Assembly: GCA_964641375.1 (NCBI GenBank)
Contig: CAZXMN010000001.1
Coordinates: forward strand, 91,464 to 155,463
Source of the DNA: an uncultured Candidatus Saccharibacteria bacterium
GTDB lineage: Bacteria > Patescibacteriota > CPR2 > UBA1875 > CAIMLA01
Length of the DNA stretch: 64,000 nt
Direction of reading: 5' to 3'
Numbering within the stretch: the stretch's first letter is position 1; every line of letters starts with the position of its first letter. The notes beneath the pieces were generated by a model. It ran no database searches. It saw nothing but the letters and a program-made list of their open reading frames with translations, and was not told the origin of the DNA. Below are positions 23,811 to 51,053 of this stretch, piece after piece. Position numbers and translations under genes: made by a program.

Positions 23811-23897
23811 TGGTGCCTCGGGCGAGACTCGAACTCGCAATTCATTTCTGAAACTAGTTCCTAAGACTAGCGCGTATACCAATTCCGCCACCGAGGC
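23811..23897 (-). tRNA. tRNA-Leu (anticodon TAG), type II with long variable arm, CCA encoded
   Basis: Hand-folded cloverleaf: acceptor GCCTCGG/CCGAGGC, T-arm GCGAG-TTCGAGT-CTCGC, anticodon loop CTTAGGA. Confidence 0.85.
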
Positions 23898-35780: not shown

Positions 35781-35905
35781 CTTTTCTCCTGTAACACGCG
35801 AGGAATATTATAGCGGATTTAAACATCTTCGTCAACCAATAAATACGTAAAAGGCGCGTTCCACCTTGCTTTTATACATTGGCATAACGCGCCTTGTTCA
35901 CCTTC

Positions 35906-35942
35906 GGGGCTCCGCACCGTTTGCGCAGCGGTGCGGAGCCCC
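35906..35942. other. Perfect 14-bp GC-rich inverted repeat (stem-loop) at the 3-prime edge of island C
   Basis: GGGGCTCCGCACCG-tttgcgcag-CGGTGCGGAGCCCC. A second hairpin, CGTCC-acgcggccgcg-GGACG, lies at 35951-35971. No U-tract follows either. Confidence 0.7.
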
Positions 35943-36007
35943 TAGGGTATCGTCCACGCGGCCGCGGGACGAAGAGTTGTCAAACTAGGAAGCCAAACGA
36001 GCTGGAC

Positions 36008-36448
36008 CTACCTCATGTCGTTGGCTCGTTCTTGGTCCTCGACGAGCATCCTGGGGTCCAAACCTCGCTGGACTACTGTCGAAGAGTGAGGACACGGGTT
36101 GCACCCCATCGTACTCGTACGCCAGGATCGAACGTCCTTCAGCACCTCATCCCGAACCGGACGAGGAATGCTGTAGGGATTGCCAGGGCTCTCAGCCAGG
36201 AAGGCCTCGAGATGCCGCATAACCGTACAGACCGTAGGGTCGTCACAGTTGTGCTGGGCGACGCCATGGAGCCTATCCCTCAGAGCGAGGATCTGTGCAG
36301 CTGCGTGGACTTCCCCACTGCCGGTAAAGTGCCGACCAGCGGTTTCAACCTCCACTACAGCTTGAGAAATCCTCTCCTCGGTCGGATGTGAAAGAACCTC
36401 CTTGTGGATCTTCTGAAGATCCAGAACCCCTGTAACGGACTCGCTCAT
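36008..36448 (-). CDS. Hypothetical 146-aa protein (island C, downstream gene of a two-gene cassette)
   Basis: ATG at 36448 with GAAGGG SD. His/Cys-rich. GC about 58%. No family recognised. Confidence 0.45.
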   Translation of the reverse strand: MSESVTGVLDLQKIHKEVLSHPTEERISQAVVEVETAGRHFTGSGEVHAAAQILALRDRLHGVAQHNCDDPTVCTVMRHLEAFLAESPGNPYSIPRPVRDEVLKDVRSWRTSTMGCNPCPHSSTVVQRGLDPRMLVEDQERANDMR

Positions 36449-36478
36449 CTTTGTTGCCCTTCTTCTGTGATTGCGGCG

Positions 36479-36688
36479 CTAGGCCGCGGGCTGCGGCTGG
36501 GCGGAACGGACTGAGATGAGACTCCTACTCGCTTTGAGCTTGGTGGTGCCTTCCCCTTGGGCGAGGACGTTTCCCTTGGTGTCCTTCGCCATAGCGACGA
36601 CGTTGCCACGACTGACACGATTGTAGCCGTGACTACGTGTATCCCTCACGAACACGATCCGAACTGGGGTCTTACCTATCATGGCCAT
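36479..36688 (-). CDS. Hypothetical 69-aa protein (island C, upstream gene)
   Basis: ATG at 36688 preceded by GGGGGAAAGAGT; 30-nt gap to the 146-aa ORF. A candidate TTGCTA-N17-TATGAT promoter lies upstream in AT-rich DNA. Confidence 0.45.
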   Translation of the reverse strand: MAMIGKTPVRIVFVRDTRSHGYNRVSRGNVVAMAKDTKGNVLAQGEGTTKLKASRSLISVRSAQPQPAA

Positions 36689-36858
36689 ACTCTTTCCCCC
36701 AAAGCCTCGAAGTGACCTTTCACTAAGACACTTCTTGGTTAGGGACTGCCGTGCGCCATACGCTCACCTTCTTCTGCTAGATTGACTGACAAAGAACAAT
36801 ACAAAAAATATCATACAATAATTATTCGCTTTTAGCAAGCCTTTTATATCAAAAAAAT

Positions 36859-39800
36859 TTAATTTTCGTTTAAGCGTTTGCGAATTGAATCCGCTAGCTT
36901 TTCTGAATATTTAATCCCAAAAGGTAATTTCACTTTTTTAGGTCCTGAGGGTCCGTTCGGAACAAAGACATAGACTGGCGCTTCGCCCTTATTCGCAGCT
37001 AATTTATATTTGATATCATTTAAAGCCTCCGCGGTAGTACCACGTGGTATAAAAATGTCTACAACTCCCTTGCTGTCAATCTGCACGGATTGAGTGATTA
37101 ACGGATCAATTACCTGCATTTCAGCTTCCTCCTGGTTTTCCGTAAGTTTAATAGCTTTATCTACAATCACCTTGATTTGCCCGTCTTTTGTGCTCACCTT
37201 ACCGCGAATCAAAATAATATTACCAGTGACCCAAAGATCGGGAGTTTCTTCAATCACCTTAGGAAATACTATCAACTCAGTTTTTCCCGTATGATCCTCA
37301 AACCAAGCAAAATACATAAGTTGCTTAGTCCTGGTCATTACTTTTTGGATATTTGCAAGAACTCCGCCAATTTTGACAGTTTGATTGTTCATTTCTTCGG
37401 TAAGTTCAACTATAGGATTTACTTTGAGTTTCAAAAGCTGTTCCTTGTATTCGTTCATTGGATGCTCTGATATATAAATGCCGAGCAAGTCTTTTTCATA
37501 CCTAAGTTTCTCAGCAGTTGACATCTTGGTCTGGGCTGGTTCAAGTTTGAGAGATGGCATTTCTACTCCACTACCACCAAAAAGATCAATCTGACCGTTG
37601 GCAGCAGTACCTTGAGCCTTTGATGAATAAGATAATATGCGCTCCATATTGGCAAGCAGAGTCGCCCTCTCGCCGAATTCGTCCATTGCTCCGCTTTTAA
37701 TAAGTGATTCCAGCATTTTCTTATTAACTTCCGACGTATGAACACGTTTTGCAAAGTCTTCAACAGAAGAGAATTTGCCACCTTCTTCTCTAGCAGCCAG
37801 AATGGCCTCAATCGGCCCCATACCTACATTTTTGATTGCCATCAGACCAAAACGTATCTTTCCTGTCTCTTTCACAACACCAAACTCCGCAAAAGATTCA
37901 TTGACATCCGGGGGCAAAACTTCAATCCCCATTCGCTGACATTCGTCAATTTCAATAGTTATACGATCCATGTTGCCGTAGTCAGAAGTCATAAGCGCAG
38001 ACATGAATGCAGCCGGATAGTGAGCCTTCAGATTTGCAGTCCAATAGGAAATAAGAGCATAACAGGCAGCATGAGACTTATTGAAAGCATATTGTGCAAA
38101 AGTCTCCCAACCATCGAATATTTCATTTGCCAACTTCTCAGGGACGTCATTTGTATCCTTTGCACCCTTTACGAATTCACCCCTCATTTGCTTTAAAAGC
38201 GTAGGATTCTTTTTACCGATTGCCTTACGCAAAGTATCAGCTTGTCCACCTGTAAAACCAGCTAAATCTTTCGATACTTGCATAACTTGTTCCTGATAAA
38301 CCGTAATCCCATAGGTATTCTTGAGTGCGGTCTCCATAGCTGGATGCTGATATTTAATAGCTTTCTTGCCATGTTTACGAGCGATAAACTCGGGGATATT
38401 TTCCATAGGACCCGGCCTATATAGAGCACCCATAGCAATAATGTCTTCAAAAACAGTCGGTTTTAACTCCTTTATATAGCGTTTCATCCCAGCTGACTCA
38501 AACTGGAAAACTCCAGTAGTTTCACCTTTAGATAATAGTTTGTATGTTTGAGCATCATCAATGGGCATCGTATACAAATCGATATCTACATCATTGACCT
38601 TCTTGATGATGCGCATTGCGTTTTTGATGACTGTCAGGTTAGAGAGTCCCAAAAAGTCCATCTTAAGTAGTCCGAGCTCCTCTATCGCATGCATTTCATA
38701 TTGTGTATTTGTTGCTAGATCGCCCCTAGTCGCCCGCTGCAGTGGAGTATATTGGACTAAAGGATCCTTGGATATCACCACACCGGCAGCATGAGTAGAA
38801 GAATGCCTGGCCACTCCTTCCAGTTTCGTCGCAAGGTCGATAAGATGTTTTACGTCTAGTTCACTAGTATAGGCCGCTCTGAGTTCTTGGCTAGTGTTTA
38901 ATGCCTCAGAAAGTTTAATATTGAGGACTTCCGGTACCATCTTGGCAATTCTATCAACGTCTCCATAAGCTAGTCCTAGTACTCTACCCACATCACGGAT
39001 GGCATTTCTAGCTTTCATAGTACCAAAAGTGATTATCTGTGCCACTCGATCCTGGCCATATTTTTCGGTTACATAAGCAATTACCTCGTGACGCCTGTCG
39101 TCAGCAAAGTCCATGTCCACATCAGGCATAGAAATACGATCTGGATTCAGAAATCTCTCAAAAAGTAAGTCGTATTGCATCGGTTCTAGGTCAACAATAC
39201 CGAGAGCATAGGCCACAACCGACCCTGCAGCAGAACCACGACCTGGACCGACCACAATACCCTGATTTTTGGCCCAATTAACGTAATCCTGTACGATAAG
39301 GAAATAGCCCTCATAACCCATTTTTTCGATAACCTTCAGCTCGTATTCTAGTCTTTCTTTAAGTTCAGGTGTTTTTTTGCCATAACGTCTGGCAATGCCC
39401 TCGTCGACTAATTTCTCCAGATATTTACCTTCCGTCAAACCGTCTGGTGTTGGAAAGTCAGGTATCAAAATGCCACCTAGTTCGATAGTGAGATCGCACA
39501 TCTCGGCAATTTTCACTGTGTTTTCGAAGGCCTCTGGCACGTCCGGAAAAGCTGCTAGCAGATCTTCATAAGTGCGCATGCTGTTATCCATGTTCATCTT
39601 CATGCGATCTTCATCTGTGACCATTTTGCCCATTTGGACACAAAGAAGAACATCCTGAGCCTCTGCATCATCTTTATTCACATAGTGAACATCATTTGTC
39701 ACTACCAGACCAATTCCAGTCTCCTTCGAGATTTTTTTCAAACCTTCATTAGCAATACGTTGGTCTTCGGCGCCTGGCTGATCTTGCAACTCGAGATAAT

Positions 39801-40323
39801 AATAGTCTTTTCCAAAAATCTCTTGATATTCCAGGGCAGCTTTCTTCGCTTTCTCGTAATCTCCGTTTACGATTGTTCTGGCCGGTTCACCGTTTAAGCA
39901 TGCAGACATACCGATCAGTCCCTCTGAATATTGTCTAAGAGTATCTTTGTCTATTCTAGGTTTGTAATAATAGCCATCGATGTGTGCTATAGTTACCAAC
40001 TTCATAAGGTTCTGGTAACCGGTCTTATTCCTAGCTAGTAGTACCAAATGGTAAGGTTTAGCATCAACCCTCGCTTCTTTGTCATGTAAAGTTCTAGGTG
40101 CAACATAACATTCGCAACCAATTATCGGTTTTATATCTCTTTTTTTGGCTTCTTTGTAAAATTCGATTGCTCCGTACATGACACCATGATCAGTGATCGC
40201 CATGGCTGGCATCCCGAGCTCTTTAGCTTTATCTAGATAGTCTGGGATTTTACCCATACCATCAAGTAGCGAGTAGTGGGTATGGACATGCAGATGAACG
40301 AATTTTGCTTTGTTTTCGGCCAA
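36859..40323 (-). CDS. dnaE: DNA polymerase III alpha subunit
   Basis: 1154 aa ORF with an N-terminal PHP domain (HLHVHTHYSLLDG) plus polymerase core and OB domains. Confidence 0.93.
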   Translation of the reverse strand: MAENKAKFVHLHVHTHYSLLDGMGKIPDYLDKAKELGMPAMAITDHGVMYGAIEFYKEAKKRDIKPIIGCECYVAPRTLHDKEARVDAKPYHLVLLARNKTGYQNLMKLVTIAHIDGYYYKPRIDKDTLRQYSEGLIGMSACLNGEPARTIVNGDYEKAKKAALEYQEIFGKDYYYLELQDQPGAEDQRIANEGLKKISKETGIGLVVTNDVHYVNKDDAEAQDVLLCVQMGKMVTDEDRMKMNMDNSMRTYEDLLAAFPDVPEAFENTVKIAEMCDLTIELGGILIPDFPTPDGLTEGKYLEKLVDEGIARRYGKKTPELKERLEYELKVIEKMGYEGYFLIVQDYVNWAKNQGIVVGPGRGSAAGSVVAYALGIVDLEPMQYDLLFERFLNPDRISMPDVDMDFADDRRHEVIAYVTEKYGQDRVAQIITFGTMKARNAIRDVGRVLGLAYGDVDRIAKMVPEVLNIKLSEALNTSQELRAAYTSELDVKHLIDLATKLEGVARHSSTHAAGVVISKDPLVQYTPLQRATRGDLATNTQYEMHAIEELGLLKMDFLGLSNLTVIKNAMRIIKKVNDVDIDLYTMPIDDAQTYKLLSKGETTGVFQFESAGMKRYIKELKPTVFEDIIAMGALYRPGPMENIPEFIARKHGKKAIKYQHPAMETALKNTYGITVYQEQVMQVSKDLAGFTGGQADTLRKAIGKKNPTLLKQMRGEFVKGAKDTNDVPEKLANEIFDGWETFAQYAFNKSHAACYALISYWTANLKAHYPAAFMSALMTSDYGNMDRITIEIDECQRMGIEVLPPDVNESFAEFGVVKETGKIRFGLMAIKNVGMGPIEAILAAREEGGKFSSVEDFAKRVHTSEVNKKMLESLIKSGAMDEFGERATLLANMERILSYSSKAQGTAANGQIDLFGGSGVEMPSLKLEPAQTKMSTAEKLRYEKDLLGIYISEHPMNEYKEQLLKLKVNPIVELTEEMNNQTVKIGGVLANIQKVMTRTKQLMYFAWFEDHTGKTELIVFPKVIEETPDLWVTGNIILIRGKVSTKDGQIKVIVDKAIKLTENQEEAEMQVIDPLITQSVQIDSKGVVDIFIPRGTTAEALNDIKYKLAANKGEAPVYVFVPNGPSGPKKVKLPFGIKYSEKLADSIRKRLNEN

Positions 40324-40465
40324 AATTACCCCCGTTAGTTTGCTAAAAAATCAAAAAAGACCACGCGATAAAAAGGTCTTTCGTTATAAAAGTTCTTGCA
40401 CCTCAAATCTATGTACTATTTTAGCGGTATATAGAGTAAGAAACAAGATGTTTTATTGAGAAATC

Positions 40466-41179
40466 TTAGATTGGTGACGCTGAATTTTCGGTAAGAAATG
40501 TTTTCGGATCAACCCAGGCCGCAAGCTCACTAAGCGTTGGCACATATCCCCGAACATCAATTCCAGTTCCGATATGAATTGCGAAATGAAGATGCTTTCT
40601 CTCACCATCAGTTTGGACTGAACACTGAGCACCAAGACTAGCTAAGCGCTGCCCCGCTTTTACACTACTACCCATAACGAGTGTCGTGCTCCCAAGATTA
40701 ATATGTCCATAATAAACTGTGTAGGCCTGCCCCTTTATTGTTACCCCGAGAACCAAAAGACCACCATACCCAGAAACCGGACCGATTTCTCGAATAGTAC
40801 CATCAGCGATCGCATAGACCGGAACATCCTCATTCACCTCAACTGGAGTTACCTCTAAATCGTCGGCGTCATGATAACCGCTGAAAGGTGCTCCACAAGG
40901 TGAAACCGAATCAGTCGGTTTCACTAATTGCCCAAAAGACCGGAACATTATTCGGCTTACGAAATTCGTCATGGGATAATAAAGCGTCGCGGCAGGAACC
41001 TGGTTTTGCGGAGTTTGCGGTGCACTATTTGTAGCGCTATTCTGACTGCTGTTCTGCTGGGTGCTTGTTGTTGTTTTGGAAGTAACTTTTTTGTGTTTGT
41101 TATAATACCAAGCTGCCCCACTGCCGATGACTAGGATAACAAGGGCTGAAACAATAATTATTATCTGCTTTCTTTTCAT
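40466..41179 (-). CDS. M23 family peptidoglycan metalloendopeptidase, membrane anchored
   Basis: 237 aa ORF with an N-terminal TM helix and M23 motifs (YGHINLGS, HLHFAIH). Confidence 0.8.
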   Translation of the reverse strand: MKRKQIIIIVSALVILVIGSGAAWYYNKHKKVTSKTTTSTQQNSSQNSATNSAPQTPQNQVPAATLYYPMTNFVSRIMFRSFGQLVKPTDSVSPCGAPFSGYHDADDLEVTPVEVNEDVPVYAIADGTIREIGPVSGYGGLLVLGVTIKGQAYTVYYGHINLGSTTLVMGSSVKAGQRLASLGAQCSVQTDGERKHLHFAIHIGTGIDVRGYVPTLSELAAWVDPKTFLTENSASPI

Positions 41180-41206: not shown

Positions 41207-41827
41207 CTATTTGATCTCTTTGATCTTTGTCCTGTTTTTTTCAAGTAAAGTCATTACCCCAAATATAACGAAAACCAATATACCGGCCCCAACAACAACG
41301 ACTAGAAACCAAGAGAAAAAGAAGTTTGAGAGTGCTACAATACTGCTTACTATTCCAAGACCAAACTCAGTTGAAGCCAGAAGTTTAACTATAACGAAAA
41401 ACAAAACTATCCCAATAAGCGCTTTCTTGGCAAATGACGATCTTATCGAGATGTAATTATCCCAAAAAAGACCGAGTTTGCGCTGCCAGGACAGAGTCTT
41501 GGCGTGAGAAAAATCCTCAATCGCTTTCGCATACGTTGCTATAATGTCCTCGGTTTCAAAGCTTGAAAGCGTGTAGTCAAAACTATTTTTTATTAATTCT
41601 GTCTTCTCAAGTGCTTTCTTCAGAGCATCCTTATCATTAAGCCGCCAACCAAAAAGCGTCAATGTCTGTTTCATGTTCTTTGTCGAATAACCCTTTGAGC
41701 GCAACAGATAAAAAAAGACTTTTTGTGCTTCAATACAAGCCATTTTGTAACCGCTTGTGGTATGTTCTTTGAATGCTTTTTCGACTTCGCCCCAAAGATT
41801 TTCACTTTTCGTGCTTATTGCTTTCAC
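41207..41827 (-). CDS. Hypothetical membrane protein (soluble N-domain plus two C-terminal TM helices)
   Basis: 206 aa ORF. Its start overlaps the gatB stop (ATGA), suggesting translational coupling. No family recognised. Confidence 0.5.
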   Translation of the reverse strand: MKAISTKSENLWGEVEKAFKEHTTSGYKMACIEAQKVFFYLLRSKGYSTKNMKQTLTLFGWRLNDKDALKKALEKTELIKNSFDYTLSSFETEDIIATYAKAIEDFSHAKTLSWQRKLGLFWDNYISIRSSFAKKALIGIVLFFVIVKLLASTEFGLGIVSSIVALSNFFFSWFLVVVVGAGILVFVIFGVMTLLEKNRTKIKEIK

Positions 41828-43308
41828 TAAGACAATTTCTTTCGTAATATTTCGTTTACGACAGCCGGGTTAGCCTGACCTTTAGTCCTCGCCATAACTT
41901 GGCCAACCAAGAAACCGAAAGCTTGCTGTTTGCCGGCCTTGAAATCAGACACTGACTTTTCATTTGATTTTAAGATCTCTTCAATTACCCTTGCAATCTC
42001 ACCTTCAGAACTAATCTGTCGCAAAGTACTTTTACCAATTATTTCGGTAGGATCCTCACCGGTCTCAAAGACTTGATCAAAGATTTCTTTAGCTATTTTC
42101 CCCGTAATCGAACCAGCATCGATAGAACTAATAATAACAGCAATGTATTCTGGTTTTACTTTTGACTCAGAAAGCCGAATTGAGTTTTTATTCAGTCTTC
42201 CAAGTAATTCTCCTATGATCCAGTTAGCTGTCTTCTTGGCGGCCTGTCGTATTGTCTCGTCTGTATTAAAAACGTTGACCGGCAAAGCTGTCACCGCAAG
42301 TTCAAAATAACGGGACAATTCTAAATCACTAGTTAGCTGATCAGCATCCGCCGAGGAGAGACCATATTCCGCGGCAAAACGTTTACATTTCTCTTTTGGC
42401 AGCTCCGGTAGTTTCGATTTAATTTCGTCGAGATCAAAGCCATTAGTCACCGTGAGATCAACTGGTGGTAAATCCGGTTCTGGGAAGTAACGATAGTCAT
42501 TTGCTTCTTCTTTGCTCCTCTGTGAAAGTGTCTTACCTCCGGCATCATCCCAACCACGAGTTTCCTGAATAATTCTCTCTCCGCTCTCGAGCATTTCTGT
42601 CTGTCTCGTGACTTCGTATTCGAGCGCCCGCTCAATCATTTTGAATGAGTTCATATTCTTGATTTCGACCTTCGTGCCTAGTTCCTTTTGTCCGACTGGT
42701 CGAAGTGAGATATTGGCATCACAACGCATGTTCCCCTGTTCCATATTGGCATCTGAAATATCTAAATATCTTAGGATCGCCCTGAGGTCCTGCACAAAAA
42801 TTCTGGCCTCCCTCGGACTTCGCATATCTGGTTCTGTGACAATCTCCATGAGTGGAGTGCCAGCACGGTTCAGGTCCACTAGACTATAATTCGCCTTCTC
42901 TGGATGAACAAGTTTCCCGGCATCTTCCTCGAGATGAACATGATGAATCCTGACTTTGCTAATTTTTCCATCATTATCTACTTCTAGACCGCCGCCCAGA
43001 ACTGGAGGATTCGTACTTGAGGTTATCTGATAAGCTTTCGGCAGATCCGGATAAAAATAGTTTTTTCGTTCGAAATTGAACTTATCAGCGATTTTGGCGC
43101 CCAGGGCCATGCCAAGTAAATATGTCCATTCGATTGCCTGTTTATTAGCCACTGGTAACATTCCCGGCATACCCAAACAAACAGGACAAACATTGGTGTT
43201 TGGAGCTATATCAACCGAATAATTATCGCATGTACAAAACATCTTGCTCATCGTGCGAAGCTGAGCATGGATTTCGAGCCCAATTACAATCTCATATTTT
43301 TCCATCAA
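41827..43308 (-). CDS. gatB: Asp/Glu-tRNA amidotransferase subunit B
   Basis: 493 aa ORF, MMEKYEIVIGLEIHAQL...CPVCLGMPG, the GatB family. Confidence 0.92.
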   Translation of the reverse strand: MMEKYEIVIGLEIHAQLRTMSKMFCTCDNYSVDIAPNTNVCPVCLGMPGMLPVANKQAIEWTYLLGMALGAKIADKFNFERKNYFYPDLPKAYQITSSTNPPVLGGGLEVDNDGKISKVRIHHVHLEEDAGKLVHPEKANYSLVDLNRAGTPLMEIVTEPDMRSPREARIFVQDLRAILRYLDISDANMEQGNMRCDANISLRPVGQKELGTKVEIKNMNSFKMIERALEYEVTRQTEMLESGERIIQETRGWDDAGGKTLSQRSKEEANDYRYFPEPDLPPVDLTVTNGFDLDEIKSKLPELPKEKCKRFAAEYGLSSADADQLTSDLELSRYFELAVTALPVNVFNTDETIRQAAKKTANWIIGELLGRLNKNSIRLSESKVKPEYIAVIISSIDAGSITGKIAKEIFDQVFETGEDPTEIIGKSTLRQISSEGEIARVIEEILKSNEKSVSDFKAGKQQAFGFLVGQVMARTKGQANPAVVNEILRKKLS

Positions 43309-43760
43309 AGCACTCCTAGAATCTTTAAGGCTTTTTTGAAATATTCCATCGCCTTTTTCCCGTTTGAAACATTGAAATCAATCCCGTTATCATGTGCCAC
43401 TGAATTACGAACTTTATGCGCATACCATAGATTGTCATAATCGGAATAATTAGAGAACAACTTTTGCCCCGCTTTAAGCATATCGGCAAAGGTATTTCCC
43501 GGTAGTCCCTTCGAAGAGAGAACCTGTTCCACCAACTTATCAGCATCCATCACCGAGGCTTTTATCTGTGCCGGCCCACCGAGGTTAGCCGTAGCTTCTA
43601 TCTCTGACCATTTACTTTGAATCTGTCTCCTGTCTAAACTCACAGCATTATTGTACTTACTGCCGTTTGATTTCTTTTTCTTACCGAAACCACCAAAAAC
43701 CGGAATCACAATAATGGAAGCAAGTATAATGGCAAAGATTAGGACATAAACTGACAACAT
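43305..43760 (-). CDS. Membrane-anchored hypothetical protein with RNxxxH (HEPN-like) motif
   Basis: 151 aa ORF with an N-terminal TM helix and a KKKK stretch. The C-terminal LWYAHKVRNSVAHDNG fits the Rx4-6H HEPN signature. It overlaps neighbouring genes at both ends. Confidence 0.4.
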   Translation of the reverse strand: MLSVYVLIFAIILASIIVIPVFGGFGKKKKSNGSKYNNAVSLDRRQIQSKWSEIEATANLGGPAQIKASVMDADKLVEQVLSSKGLPGNTFADMLKAGQKLFSNYSDYDNLWYAHKVRNSVAHDNGIDFNVSNGKKAMEYFKKALKILGVL

Positions 43761-44506
43761 TAATTTTCCTCGATTGTAACCTTATTAATAAGAACTGTTG
43801 TGGTTGGTTTTGATTGTTCGCCTTGTCCATTATCAACAGTTGGTGTGATATTAATCTTATTCACTACGTCCATGCCTGAAGTAACATTACCAAAGATCGT
43901 ATAGCTCTTCGGTAACTTACCGCCACTGTAATCGCCGGTCATGATAAAGAACTGAGAACCGTTCGTATTCGCACCAGAATTAGCCATGGCGACAGTGCCT
44001 GGCGTATAGTCACCAACAACTTTTTCGTCGTCAAACTTATAGCCAGGACCTCCTGATCCATTTCCAAGAGGATCGCCACCTTGAATCATAAAGTCCTTCA
44101 CGATTCGGTGAAAAGTTAAACCGTCGTAGTATCCGTCCTTCGCGAGCACAACAAAGTTATTCACCGTCTTTGGAGCGTCCTTGGCATCTAGTGTAATTTC
44201 GAAATTGCCATCATTTGTCTCAAATTTAGCAACATAAGTCTTGCTCGTATCAATTTGCATATCAGGAGCCTGGGAATAGGTACGAGATGATGTTTTATAA
44301 CTCTTCACTTTTGCCACTGCTTTCGCTTTATTAAAAAAATTATTTTTGATGTACGAAGTGCCGAAGAAAATCCCAGTCCCGAGCAAAGCTCCAGCTGCGA
44401 TACCTAGTAACACAAATCCGAAAATTTTAAACCTTCGCTCTTTATTTAGAACTTTTTGGATTCGCTCTATTTTTCGTTGCTCTTTGAGTTTTTCTGCTTT
44501 ACCCAT
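43760..44506 (-). CDS. Cyclophilin-type peptidyl-prolyl cis-trans isomerase, membrane anchored
   Basis: 248 aa ORF with an N-terminal TM helix and cyclophilin core motifs (FHRIVKDFMIQGGDP, FFIMTGD). Confidence 0.85.
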   Translation of the reverse strand: MGKAEKLKEQRKIERIQKVLNKERRFKIFGFVLLGIAAGALLGTGIFFGTSYIKNNFFNKAKAVAKVKSYKTSSRTYSQAPDMQIDTSKTYVAKFETNDGNFEITLDAKDAPKTVNNFVVLAKDGYYDGLTFHRIVKDFMIQGGDPLGNGSGGPGYKFDDEKVVGDYTPGTVAMANSGANTNGSQFFIMTGDYSGGKLPKSYTIFGNVTSGMDVVNKINITPTVDNGQGEQSKPTTTVLINKVTIEEN

Positions 44507-45940
44507 TTATTTCTCCGCTTTCTTTTCGTACATATGTCCGAAATTCAGTACTGTTTCTTCGTCAAAATGTTTACCAATAATTTGCATCCCCATTGGAAGG
44601 CTGCTGCTATCAAAACCACAAGGGAGTGAAAGTGCTGGGTTCCCAGCCAGATTAATGGCTGCAGTGTAGACATCGGCCAGATACATTTGGACCGGGTCAC
44701 TTGTTTTCTCGCCGATCTTAAAGGCAGTCGTCGGTGCTACTGGAGCTAGTATGACATCGACTTTCTCAAGAGCCTTCTCGAAATCCTGCTTGATAAGTGT
44801 GCGCACTTTCATTGCTTTATTATAATAAGCATCGTAATAACCGGCTGAGAGCACGAAAGTCCCGAGCATTATTCTCCTCTTCGCTTCGGCGCCAAGTCCT
44901 TCATCACGTGACTTGAAATAATGATCTATTAAATTCTCGGATTCGCTAGAACTATGGCCATATTTAATACCGTCGTAACGACCTAGGTTGGAACTGACTT
45001 CAGCTGGTTGAATAATATAGTAAACGGGCACGCCATATTTAATATTCGGCAGGCTGATATCCACAATTTCGGCGCCCAGTTCCTGATATATTTTCTTCGC
45101 GGAGTCTATGGCTGTGGCAATTTCTTTGTTTAAACCTAGCTCGACGAATTCCTTAGCCCATCCAATTTTCTTGCCTTTGAGAGGTTTATCGAGGGCAAGT
45201 GAATAATTTGGCACAGGTAAATCAACGGATGTCGAATCTTTTTCATCGTGACCGGCAATTACTTCTAGAATTTTAGCAATATCTTCTACATGGCTTGCGA
45301 TTGGACCCACACAATCCAGAGATGATGCCATAGCGATGAGGCCATATCTAGAAACACGACCGTATGTAGGCTTCAGACCAACAACACCACAAAACGCGGC
45401 TGGTTGACGAATTGAACCGCCGGTGTCAGAACCGATTGAATATACACATTCACCAGAGGCTACCGCCGCAGCCGAACCACCAGACGAACCGCCAGAAACT
45501 CTAGTAGAATCCCATGGGTTTTTTGTCACACCGTAATCTGAATTCTCGGTACTTGCCCCATGTGCCCAAGCGTCACAATTATTTTTACCAACGATAACCG
45601 CTCCTGCATCTTTTAGCTTTTTGACCACCGTTGCATCATAAGCGGGCACAAAATCATCTAACATCTTGCTTGAGGCAGTTGTACGAACATCTTTTGTACA
45701 GAAAACATCTTTGATCCCAACAACTACGCCATCCAAAATACCCTTTGATTTTCCTGACTCAAATCTCTTCGATGAAGACATTGCCTCCTGAAGAGCACTT
45801 TCTGCCGTAACCGTGACGAAAGCGTTCAATTCATCTTCGCGAATATCAATTGTTCTTAGTATTTCTTTCAGTTCGTCATTTACACAATCCGGTCTTTGCA
45901 TAAATTTTTTATTCAATTCTGTAATTGTATCTTTAGCCAT
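44507..45940 (-). CDS. gatA: Glutamyl-tRNA(Gln) amidotransferase subunit A
   Basis: 477 aa ORF with the amidase signature GGSSGGSAAAVA...GSDTGGSIRQPA. Confidence 0.92.
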   Translation of the reverse strand: MAKDTITELNKKFMQRPDCVNDELKEILRTIDIREDELNAFVTVTAESALQEAMSSSKRFESGKSKGILDGVVVGIKDVFCTKDVRTTASSKMLDDFVPAYDATVVKKLKDAGAVIVGKNNCDAWAHGASTENSDYGVTKNPWDSTRVSGGSSGGSAAAVASGECVYSIGSDTGGSIRQPAAFCGVVGLKPTYGRVSRYGLIAMASSLDCVGPIASHVEDIAKILEVIAGHDEKDSTSVDLPVPNYSLALDKPLKGKKIGWAKEFVELGLNKEIATAIDSAKKIYQELGAEIVDISLPNIKYGVPVYYIIQPAEVSSNLGRYDGIKYGHSSSESENLIDHYFKSRDEGLGAEAKRRIMLGTFVLSAGYYDAYYNKAMKVRTLIKQDFEKALEKVDVILAPVAPTTAFKIGEKTSDPVQMYLADVYTAAINLAGNPALSLPCGFDSSSLPMGMQIIGKHFDEETVLNFGHMYEKKAEK

Positions 45941-48297
<2,357 letters not shown>

Positions 48298-50303: not shown

Positions 50304-50388
50304 TGGTGCCCGGGGCGGGACTTGAACCCGCAAGACCGAAGCCAACGGATTTTAAGTCCGTCGCGTATACCAATTCCGCCACCCGGGC
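50304..50388 (-). tRNA. tRNA-Leu (anticodon TAA), type II
   Basis: Acceptor GCCCGGG/CCCGGGC, T-arm GCGGG-TTCAAGT-CCCGC, anticodon loop CTTAAAA, CCA encoded. Confidence 0.85.
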
Positions 50389-50395
50389 GTATAAG

Positions 50396-50469
50396 TGGAG
50401 GCCTGACCCGGAATTGAACCGGGGTACGCGGTTTTGCAGACCGCTGCGTAACCACTCCGCCATCAGGCC
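50396..50469 (-). tRNA. tRNA-Cys (anticodon GCA)
   Basis: Hand-folded cloverleaf with anticodon stem-loop GCGGT-CTGCAAA-ACCGC and T-loop TTCAATT. Confidence 0.85.
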
Positions 50470-50490
50470 ACGTCTGAGGAAAAGATAAAA

Positions 50491-50565
50491 TGGAGCGGGA
50501 GACGGGGATCGAACCCGCGACCTCAACCTTGGCAAGGTTGCGCTCTACCGCTAAGCTACTCCCGC
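50491..50565 (-). tRNA. tRNA-Gly (anticodon GCC)
   Basis: Anticodon stem-loop CAACC-TTGCCAA-GGTTG, T-loop TTCGATC, CCA encoded. Confidence 0.85.
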
Positions 50566-50568
50566 AAG

Positions 50569-50644
<76 letters not shown>

Positions 50645-50657
50645 ATGATTATTTTTT

Positions 50658-50734
50658 TGGTGGGCGCCAAGGGATTCGAACCCCTGACCCTCTCGGTGTA
50701 AACGAGATGCTCTAACCAGCTGAGCTAGGCGCCC
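50658..50734 (-). tRNA. tRNA-Val (anticodon TAC)
   Basis: GGGCGCCTAGCTCAGCTGGTTAGAGC, anticodon loop TTTACAC, T-loop TTCGAAT. Confidence 0.85.
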
Positions 50735-50966
50735 ACGTCAGCGCAAGCTAACGTGTTACACAGAACCGCCAATAGGCGTCTGTTTCACACTTTCGCTATG
50801 CCTCCTCTCCAGTCAAAATCGACAGATTTTGCCTGAGGGGAAACGGAACGAAGTGGTCCCTGCCGAGAAAATTTGTAATTTTCTCGGAAAAAGGAACATC
50901 TACGAAGGTGCAGAGCGATTGGCTTTAGCCAACTCATGAAGACCGAAGTAGGATGCGACGACGCAG

Positions 50967-51053
50967 TGGTGCGGACGAGAGGACTTGAACCTCCAAGGCC
51001 TTGCGGCCACTAGCCCCTCATGCTAGCGCGTATACCAATTCCGCCACGCCCGC
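50967..51053 (-). tRNA. tRNA-Leu (anticodon GAG), type II
   Basis: Shares the D-arm TGGCGGAATTGGTATACGCG with the other two Leu tRNAs. Anticodon loop ATGAGGG, T-arm GGAGG-TTCAAGT-CCTCT. Confidence 0.8.

Follow-up and report, generated by a model that had tools for sequence, protein, structure and literature searches.

A predicted membrane-anchored HEPN protein encoded in the gat operon of Patescibacteria, with a degenerate paralogue

The stretch of DNA analysed here (the window, 64,000 nucleotides in length) comes from contig CAZXMN010000001.1 of an uncultured Candidatus Saccharibacteria bacterium. On its minus strand lie, in this order, ligA, gatC, gatA, a gene for a cyclophilin with a transmembrane (TM) helix, a gene for a 151-residue protein, gatB, a gene for a 206-residue protein and a gene for an M23-family peptidase. 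From gatC through the 206-residue gene, neighbours abut or share 1–4 nt. The subject of this report is the 151-residue protein, referred to below as TM-HEPN, which appears to carry an HEPN ribonuclease domain behind an N-terminal membrane anchor, and the 206-residue protein, which appears to be its degenerate paralogue. The principal features, in coordinates of the window, are as follows.

43305–43760, minus: TM-HEPN protein, 151 residues; N-terminal anchor and predicted HEPN domain with an intact Rx4H
43695–43751, minus: TM helix of TM-HEPN, residues 4–22; Kyte–Doolittle 2.5–3.0 (maximum 2.99)
43671–43682, minus: KKKK of TM-HEPN, residues 27–30, within GGFG-KKKK after the TM helix
43308–43631, minus: predicted HEPN domain of TM-HEPN, residues 44–151
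43392–43418, minus: predicted active-site motif HKVRNSVAH of TM-HEPN (H115, R118, N119 and H123), residues 115–123, at the C-terminal end of helix 3
44507–45940, minus: gatA, 477 residues; Pfam Amidase, E 3e-151; constant upstream neighbour of the TM-HEPN gene
41827–43308, minus: gatB, 492–493 residues; Pfam GatB_N, E 9e-118, and GatB_Yqey; usual downstream neighbour
41207–41827, minus: predicted pseudo-HEPN paralogue, 206 residues; N-terminal HEPN fold without the Arg and His, C-terminal hydrophobic hairpin
41507–41803, minus: degenerate HEPN domain of the 206-residue protein, residues 9–107, as placed by hhalign and the structure model
41231–41434, minus: hydrophobic membrane region of the 206-residue protein, residues 132–199; two, possibly three, helices

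The TM-HEPN protein and its family

HEPN domains are defined as bundles of four helices, the second and third being separated by an insert; an Rx4-6H signature with a polar residue (N, D or H) after the arginine ends helix 3, and helix 2 contains a conserved acidic residue, as a rule within Ex3[KR] (Anantharaman et al., 2013; PMC3710099). The AlphaFold2 model of the 151-residue protein, calculated with 22 homologues, has a mean predicted local distance difference test score of 83.9 and displays, after the TM segment, helices at residues 44–59 and 63–83, an insert with a short helix (91–97) and helices at 105–123 and 131–147. All of the published hallmarks are present: the bundle with its insert, the Rx4-6H signature, Asn119 after the arginine and the acidic residue in helix 2. 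In the alignment of 43 diverse homologues (A3), Asp74 of helix 2 (63–83) is conserved in at least 90% of the sequences and the consensus further reads D/E78-x3-K82; the window protein has Glu78, and Ser at position 82. His115, Arg118, Asn119 and His123 are invariant in these 43 sequences and in 22 close homologues (A1), and the pattern HxxR[NHDQ]xxxH is kept in 171 of 171 family proteins. RNxxxH is seen once in ~19,900 residues of putative window proteins, so that the motif alone is only modestly unlikely. Its conservation is well beyond chance, and the case is made by this conservation and by where the motif lies in the fold.

The recurring sub-threshold Pfam matches are all to HEPN families (pEK499_p136, 0.064; Hypoth_Ymh, 0.13; RiboL-PSP, 0.0014; Cthe2314, 0.035; Swt1, 0.059), and no profile search assigned the protein to a non-HEPN family. 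The structural neighbours of the model include 8xdj, 1wwp, YutE and 7ae2, and further kanamycin nucleotidyltransferase, Csm6, AbiA, HI0074 and sacsin. The 151-residue protein is best described as a member of the HEPN superfamily on a membrane anchor, with a canonical and strictly conserved RNase site, and is predicted to be active. We consider the HEPN fold, the conserved site, the operon membership and the paralogy described below, taken jointly, to be very probable. One family member (P0201, 255 residues) contains two tandem HEPN domains, with HLDVRNAIAH and HKLRNQFAH, and has no TM helix; such a natural fusion fits a protein that works as a dimer.

One clear N-terminal TM helix is present in 124 of the 171 members, with a median of three residues before it. 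Lys and Arg average 0.23 before the helix versus 4.4 in the following 15 residues. By the positive-inside rule this asymmetry suggests an N-out/C-in topology, which would place the HEPN domain in the cytoplasm. The soluble domain of the window protein is basic (isoelectric point ~9.3). Among the members without a TM helix (e.g. P0096, P0101 and P0126) a W..L.LPF-like pattern recurs after a basic leader; this amphipathic segment could lie in the plane of the membrane as an anchor or could bind another protein, and in some lineages the family may be attached to the membrane peripherally.

To collect the family, 1.84 billion representatives of 50%-identity clusters were searched with a profile; 2,766 of them matched at E ≤ 1e-3, among which 1,789 reached E ≤ 1e-10, and the matching proteins are all of ~130–165 residues. 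A scan of one genome per GTDB species, using tblastn with alignment A1 as the query and E ≤ 1e-3, found stretches encoding relatives in at least 500 species genomes. Synteny was counted at the 80 best tblastn matches to the query among these, with taxon labels as deposited. Nearly all of the 80 are labelled as Patescibacteria (Saccharibacteria, Nanosyncoccus, Uhrbacteria, Berkelbacteria, Woykebacteria and Minisyncoccota). The gatA gene lies upstream on the same strand at 76 of the 80 loci, or at 76 of the 77 informative ones, since three of the four loci without it are at contig ends and L035 is the sole real exception. The median gap between the gatA stop and the HEPN start is −0.5 nt. Downstream, gatB follows on the same strand at 53 of the 80 loci with a median gap of −1 nt. 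The HEPN–gatA adjacency is found at more loci than gatA–gatB (52) or gatA–gatC (57, a count from which the short and divergent GatC may have escaped in tblastn), and it is retained down to ~28% identity. The usual order, gatC–gatA–HEPN–gatB, is also that of loci L001, L005 and L007, which were reached via the 206-residue protein, and of a metagenome-assembled genome (MAG) labelled WS5 (L092). Identity of the HEPN protein to its window counterpart tracks that of GatA (Spearman 0.63, p 4e-9; GatB versus GatA 0.74), which fits co-inheritance. In the Patescibacteria genomes examined, the TM-HEPN gene is therefore a conserved part of the gat operon, located immediately downstream of gatA, and it appears to be inherited vertically. 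A preliminary description of the window, made from its sequence, had reported the gene order from ligA to the 206-residue gene, one TM helix followed by KKKK, and an HEPN-type Rx4-6H signature. The open reading frames (ORFs) and Pfam matches bear out the order, and the helix, the lysines and the signature all stand. Its view that the gat operon is interrupted does not, the HEPN gene being a regular constituent.

The HEPN gene is the constant element of the gatA–gatB interval, and the interval behaves as an accretion hotspot. In higher-GC lineages, some of them labelled Gammaproteobacteria, a protein of ~200 residues with CxxC...CxxC and a weak match to the NMD3 family (E 0.001) is encoded between gatA and the HEPN gene; such zinc-ribbon genes lie at L025 1597–2202, L029 5186–5860, L043 5269–5862 and L086 5380–5958. 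Other small genes, inserted around the HEPN gene in different lineages, encode proteins with a SHOCT-like tail, a 90-residue membrane protein, an MscS-like protein and a HicB/UPF0150-like protein (L005 5693–6181; L092 6499–6966 and 7051–7545; L001 8456–8728 and 10207–10740; L034 5503–5763). A hidden Markov model (HMM) search of all locus ORFs found no HEPN copies besides TM-HEPN and the 206-residue family, so that none of the inserted small genes is another paralogue. If gatB is located elsewhere, the HEPN gene is followed by lgt and a thioredoxin-reductase-like gene, trxB (L052, L054 and L043); alternative neighbourhoods are also seen at L004 5721–7966 and at L035 5366–5860, where a tsaE-like gene is upstream and gatA is missing. 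The ligA–gatC–gatA–HEPN arrangement of Patescibacteria is found as well in MAGs deposited as Gammaproteobacteria (L025, L027, L029, L036, L048, L050, L053, L056, L065, L067, L068, L072 and L085), Nanoarchaeia (L071) and Binatia (L087); these labels are probably wrong.

The 206-residue protein

The AlphaFold2 model of the 206-residue protein contains helices at residues 11–20, 24–44, 52–62, 66–81 and 89–107, followed by membrane helices at 132–152 and 154–199. The hydrophobic stretch has Kyte–Doolittle values of at least 1.6 over residues 128–197, and the C-terminal tail is basic (~10 residues, EKNRTKIKEIK) and devoid of Cys. Alignment of the 151-residue and 206-residue families with hhalign gave a probability of 98.4% and an E value of 9.4e-15 over 99 columns, and within the fetched loci the HMM of either family matches every member of the other and nothing else. 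The counterparts of Arg118, Asn119 and His123 are Thr76, Glu77 and Asn81, and residues 1–110 contain no invariant Arg or His. By fold and by homology the 206-residue protein thus appears to be a catalytically degenerate HEPN paralogue, and its domain, having lost the Arg and His, is predicted to be inactive. This domain is slightly acidic (isoelectric point ~6.2) with an invariant FE(A/T)ED patch, whereas that of TM-HEPN is basic. The family is confined to the window's clade (11 of the 80 loci, and L001–L007) and is always encoded downstream of gatB.

The preliminary description had assigned this protein to no recognizable family, an assignment that the reciprocal HMM matches overturn. The soluble helical domain that it described is upheld; the two TM helices may be three. 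The HEPN-2TM-Zn-ribbon group of Anantharaman et al. (2013; PMC3710099) was considered for the 206-residue protein, which shares with it the order of an HEPN domain followed by two TM helices; it was rejected, as the protein has neither a Zn ribbon nor Cys in its tail, and it also lacks the Arg and His.

Relationship to known systems and possible function

The single-domain HepT/HEPN-T proteins (AF0298, 2hsb; SO_3166, 5yep; the Aphanizomenon and Legionella toxins, 7ae2 and 8xdj) are structurally closest to TM-HEPN. They share its four-helix bundle of ~110 residues and the R-N-x3-H that ends helix 3. Unlike them, TM-HEPN has an N-terminal TM anchor, lacks both a neighbouring MNT antitoxin and a Tyr following the His, is vertically inherited within a housekeeping operon and shows no match to them at the sequence level. 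Membership in the HepT–MntA (type VII) toxin–antitoxin class was accordingly rejected: the neighbours are GatA or the cyclophilin on one side and GatB on the other, and Asp-Asn-Gly follows His123, with no Tyr that could be AMPylated.

Membrane-associated bacterial HEPN groups have been described in which the HEPN domain is the cytoplasmic part of an inner-membrane protein and is predicted to process RNA at the membrane; they comprise DUF4145 with WP-TM, Abi2/Swt1 with TM, and HEPN-2TM-Zn-ribbon (Anantharaman et al., 2013; PMC3710099). None of these groups was linked there to gatCAB, and the word 'amidotransferase' occurs 0 times in that paper (PMC3710099). The DUF4145 group has the TM-then-HEPN order of the 151-residue protein. 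Membership was rejected because Pfam DUF4145 is not matched at E ≤ 1 by 11 members or at E ≤ 0.1 by the 42 other A3 members, and because the TM helix, VYVLIFAIILASIIVIPVF, has no Trp and no WP signature. One relative from a candidate division WS5 MAG (P0263, L092 6001–6447) bears the UniRef name 'DUF4145 domain-containing', and P0263 itself does not match DUF4145 at E ≤ 1 when scanned against Pfam. The TM-HEPN family may lie at the fringe of DUF4145. The families that the preliminary description had proposed for comparison (DUF4145, HepT and Abi) thus yielded no membership.

HEPN RNase domains have likewise been recruited to core functions in Ire1/RNase L (the KEN domain), C6orf70 and Las1, and in Ire1 and C6orf70 a single TM segment holds the domain at the membrane as in TM-HEPN. 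Unlike TM-HEPN, these proteins are eukaryotic, multidomain and regulated by a kinase or partner, and there is no specific sequence relationship. Lineage-specific extras that join machinery for tRNA-dependent amidation or conversion are known in Hp0100/QueH (the Helicobacter pylori Asn-transamidosome) and SepCysE; their folds are unrelated to HEPN and their roles have been shown biochemically, whereas an interaction of TM-HEPN with this machinery is putative. Within the library searched, no paper connects HEPN with GatCAB, treats gatA and gatB together with Saccharibacteria or describes the gene that lies between these two genes there; the papers found on HEPN and Patescibacteria concern archaeal defence.

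In the following scheme the topology, the dimer, the cleavage of RNA, tRNA as the substrate, the contact made with GatCAB and the heterodimer are inferred. TM-HEPN would be made together with the Glu/Asp-tRNA amidotransferase, and its anchor would hold the basic four-helix domain at the inner face of the membrane. Two copies would pair, as in other HEPN RNases, and build the active site jointly, and the dimer would cleave RNA at the cytoplasmic membrane face in a metal-independent manner, leaving 2',3'-cyclic phosphate ends. Because the constant partner is a tRNA amidotransferase, the substrate is most plausibly tRNA-related, the likeliest candidates being the tRNAs handled by GatCAB (tRNAGln and tRNAAsn, or mischarged forms); TM-HEPN would then act as a quality-control or regulatory nuclease of indirect aminoacylation. 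In the window's clade, a duplicate that has lost the catalytic Arg and His and gained a C-terminal membrane hairpin would probably pair with active TM-HEPN and regulate it, being itself inactive. Precedents for HEPN sites acting on tRNA, which make it a plausible substrate class, are the anticodon nucleases PrrC and RloC (PMC3710099) and Cas13, whose HEPN sites cleave tRNA anticodons and acceptor stems (bioRxiv 10.64898/2025.12.03.690598); unlike TM-HEPN, these are defence effectors with NTPase or CRISPR-RNA-guided regulation. Safeguards against surplus mischarged Glu-tRNAGln are known in other bacteria (PMC3241645). That TM-HEPN is a housekeeping membrane-tethered RNase functionally tied to GatCAB or to tRNA is the reading towards which, on balance, we lean. 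The specific role of a nuclease linked to GatCAB and tRNA is plausible and put forward tentatively. A stronger form, in which TM-HEPN is a fourth partner of the amidotransferase that docks on GatCAB and destroys or trims tRNAGln and tRNAAsn or their mischarged Glu and Asp forms when transamidation lags, is speculative and rather unlikely.

Several observations weigh against a housekeeping RNase tied to GatCAB or tRNA. None of the curated models (Pfam, NCBIfam, PADLOC and PHROGs) reaches its threshold for the 151-residue protein, NCBIfam giving no hit, and the best curated HEPN E values (0.0014–0.064) are below significance. Foldseek ranks the same structural neighbours on top, but at nonsignificant E values of at least 0.098. 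A single-sequence search of the PDB with the protein found nothing, and profile matches there to the ribosomal proteins bS20 and eS25 (E 0.017–0.09, in the region of helices 1 and 2) were judged to be chance helical similarity, which leaves nothing meaningful. In 47 of the 171 members there is no clear TM helix and the N-terminal segment is amphipathic instead. Sampling the best 80 matches may overstate the synteny of the most distant members, some of which are located elsewhere (P0022 between lgt and fmt; L035 after the tsaE-like gene). An HEPN RNase without regulation ought to be toxic, and outside the window's clade there is no obvious inhibitor. Ancient gene orders can last without a functional link. 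The window is itself 94% coding, with 25 of 52 same-strand gene pairs at most 10 nt apart, so that stop/start overlaps are weak evidence of translational coupling. The overlaps from which coupling had been suggested in the preliminary description are real from gatC onwards; because overlapping codons are common here, the functional link to GatCAB rests on the synteny and not on them.

The same fold and active-site evidence would fit equally well a general membrane RNase for turnover of bulk or membrane-proximal RNA, comparable to membrane-anchored RNase Y or to Ire1-type decay, with the position between gatA and gatB as a frozen accident. This would agree with the tight packing of the window, with the unrelated small genes that the interval has gained (cyclophilin, NMD3-like, SHOCT-like, HicB and MscS-like), with the lgt and trxB genes after the HEPN gene where gatB is elsewhere and the distant member between lgt and fmt, and with the earlier proposal of RNA processing by membrane-associated HEPN domains on the inner membrane face (PMC3710099). 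Adjacency to gatA at all but one informative locus, exceeding gatA–gatB and, subject to the detection of GatC, gatA–gatC, and its survival to ~28% identity make such an accident unlikely, although we regard it as a serious competitor. The operon membership, with gaps of −1 and −4 nt to gatA and gatB, would suit a noncatalytic subunit as well, in which the HEPN domain would serve to bind tRNA or a nucleotide and to tether or scaffold GatCAB, as a transamidosome, at the membrane. The substrate-binding HEPN domains of nucleotidyltransferases and the accessory factors Hp0100 and SepCysE are precedents, lineage-specific accessory proteins of indirect aminoacylation being known (PMC8406222; PMC5688128). 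Binding-type HEPN domains have, however, usually lost the Rx4-6H signature (PMC3710099), and the Arg, Asn and His of the family, invariant in 171 of 171 proteins, argue for catalysis, which makes a noncatalytic role improbable.

Toxins and defence effectors make up most of the HEPN proteins of prokaryotes (PMC3710099), the structural neighbours of TM-HEPN are HepT toxins, and an inactive paralogue encoded alongside could inhibit the active protein. A toxin or abortive-infection module lodged in the gat operon, of type VII or Abi-like, with the 206-residue protein or a neighbour as the antitoxin, is nevertheless very improbable. No MNT or other antitoxin gene is adjacent and there is no Tyr at the second position after the His; the gene has a fixed place in a core operon in 76 species genomes and diverges in step with GatA; and the 206-residue paralogue is missing from most lineages that have the HEPN gene. 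PADLOC gave 0 hits and PHROGs no hit for the 151-residue protein, and no relatives were found among 50,697 phage records, 72,556 plasmids and 2.9 million IMG/VR contigs, a negative that is supporting only, as Patescibacteria mobile elements are poorly sampled in phage and plasmid collections. An Abi or CRISPR-associated defence system was rejected as the principal interpretation on these empty searches.

To our knowledge, the HEPN RNases of bacteria and archaea have been recognized almost exclusively as weapons, namely toxins, effectors of abortive infection and accessory nucleases of CRISPR systems. The TM-HEPN gene, whose product has an intact site, has instead the look of a vertically inherited core gene, embedded in an operon that is essential for translation in a very large and little-understood bacterial lineage. 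It represents a very large uncharacterized HEPN family for which neither a curated model nor literature was found, in a housekeeping context that is unprecedented, and its inactive paralogue is newly recognized. Should TM-HEPN prove to be an active nuclease, Patescibacteria would have an unnoticed RNA-processing or tRNA quality-control enzyme linked to the synthesis of Gln-tRNA and Asn-tRNA; should it be a scaffold, their transamidosome would be tethered to the membrane. As a fourth partner of GatCAB, it would add a new layer of fidelity or stress control and would be the first housekeeping HEPN RNase described in bacteria, with the inactive paralogue tuning the nuclease in some lineages. The active/inactive pair of the window's clade offers a natural system for the regulation of HEPN dimers, and the scheme provides a testable hypothesis for one conserved 'hypothetical protein' of Patescibacteria.

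Flanking genes and the transcription unit

The remaining features of the locus are as follows.

46261–48273, minus: ligA, from the ORF list
45941–46264, minus: gatC; Pfam GatC, E 5e-23; likely true start at ATG 46231
43760–44506, minus: membrane-anchored cyclophilin, 248 residues; Pfam Pro_isomerase, E 1e-43
40466–41179, minus: M23-family peptidase with an N-terminal TM helix; Pfam Peptidase_M23, E 7e-12
40345–40381, minus: terminator-like hairpin followed by a T-run, from the sequence and RNAfold; 8-bp stem, −8.6 kcal/mol
36859–40323, minus: dnaE, from the ORF list

The junctions read TAAATG between gatC and gatA and between gatA and the cyclophilin gene, TAATG between the cyclophilin and 151-residue genes, TTGATG between the latter and gatB, and TAGTG between gatB and the 206-residue gene; a spacer of 27 nt separates the 206-residue and M23 genes. 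As listed, gatC encodes 107 residues from a GTG start that overlaps the ligA stop. Because the GatC proteins of relatives have 96–97 residues, the start is probably ATG 46231 (Met12), and the ligA/gatC overlap, probably an artefact of choosing the longest ORF, is probably not real. The overlapping or abutting codons noted in the preliminary description therefore hold from gatC to the 206-residue gene and probably not at ligA/gatC.

The cyclophilin has 11 Lys or Arg in its first 27 residues and a TM helix at ~28–50, from which its peptidyl-prolyl isomerase domain is predicted to be extracytoplasmic. It is encoded between gatA and the HEPN gene at 14 of the 80 related loci and in the WS5-labelled MAG (L092). 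The M23 peptidase is missing from the corresponding position at 80 of 80 related loci. The cyclophilin, 206-residue and M23 genes are clade-specific additions. The M23 gene is the last before the hairpin at 40345–40381, which is likely to mark the 3' end of the transcription unit; a consensus terminator scan passed over this hairpin owing to its 12-nt loop. In that scan terminator-like sites are rarer than expected, and promoter-like sites are not enriched (29 found versus 23.7 expected).

Rfam and tRNA scans gave no match within or near the gat operon. Downstream of dnaE, positions 35894–36850 hold only short overlapping ORFs on both strands and match no Rfam family. The tRNA genes of the window, among which tRNAGln and tRNAAsn do not figure, are a cluster of six (Leu-taa, Cys, Gly, Phe, Val and Leu-gag) at 50304–51053 on the minus strand, ~2 kb upstream of ligA, and a single tRNA-Leu(tag) gene at 23811–23897, also on the minus strand.

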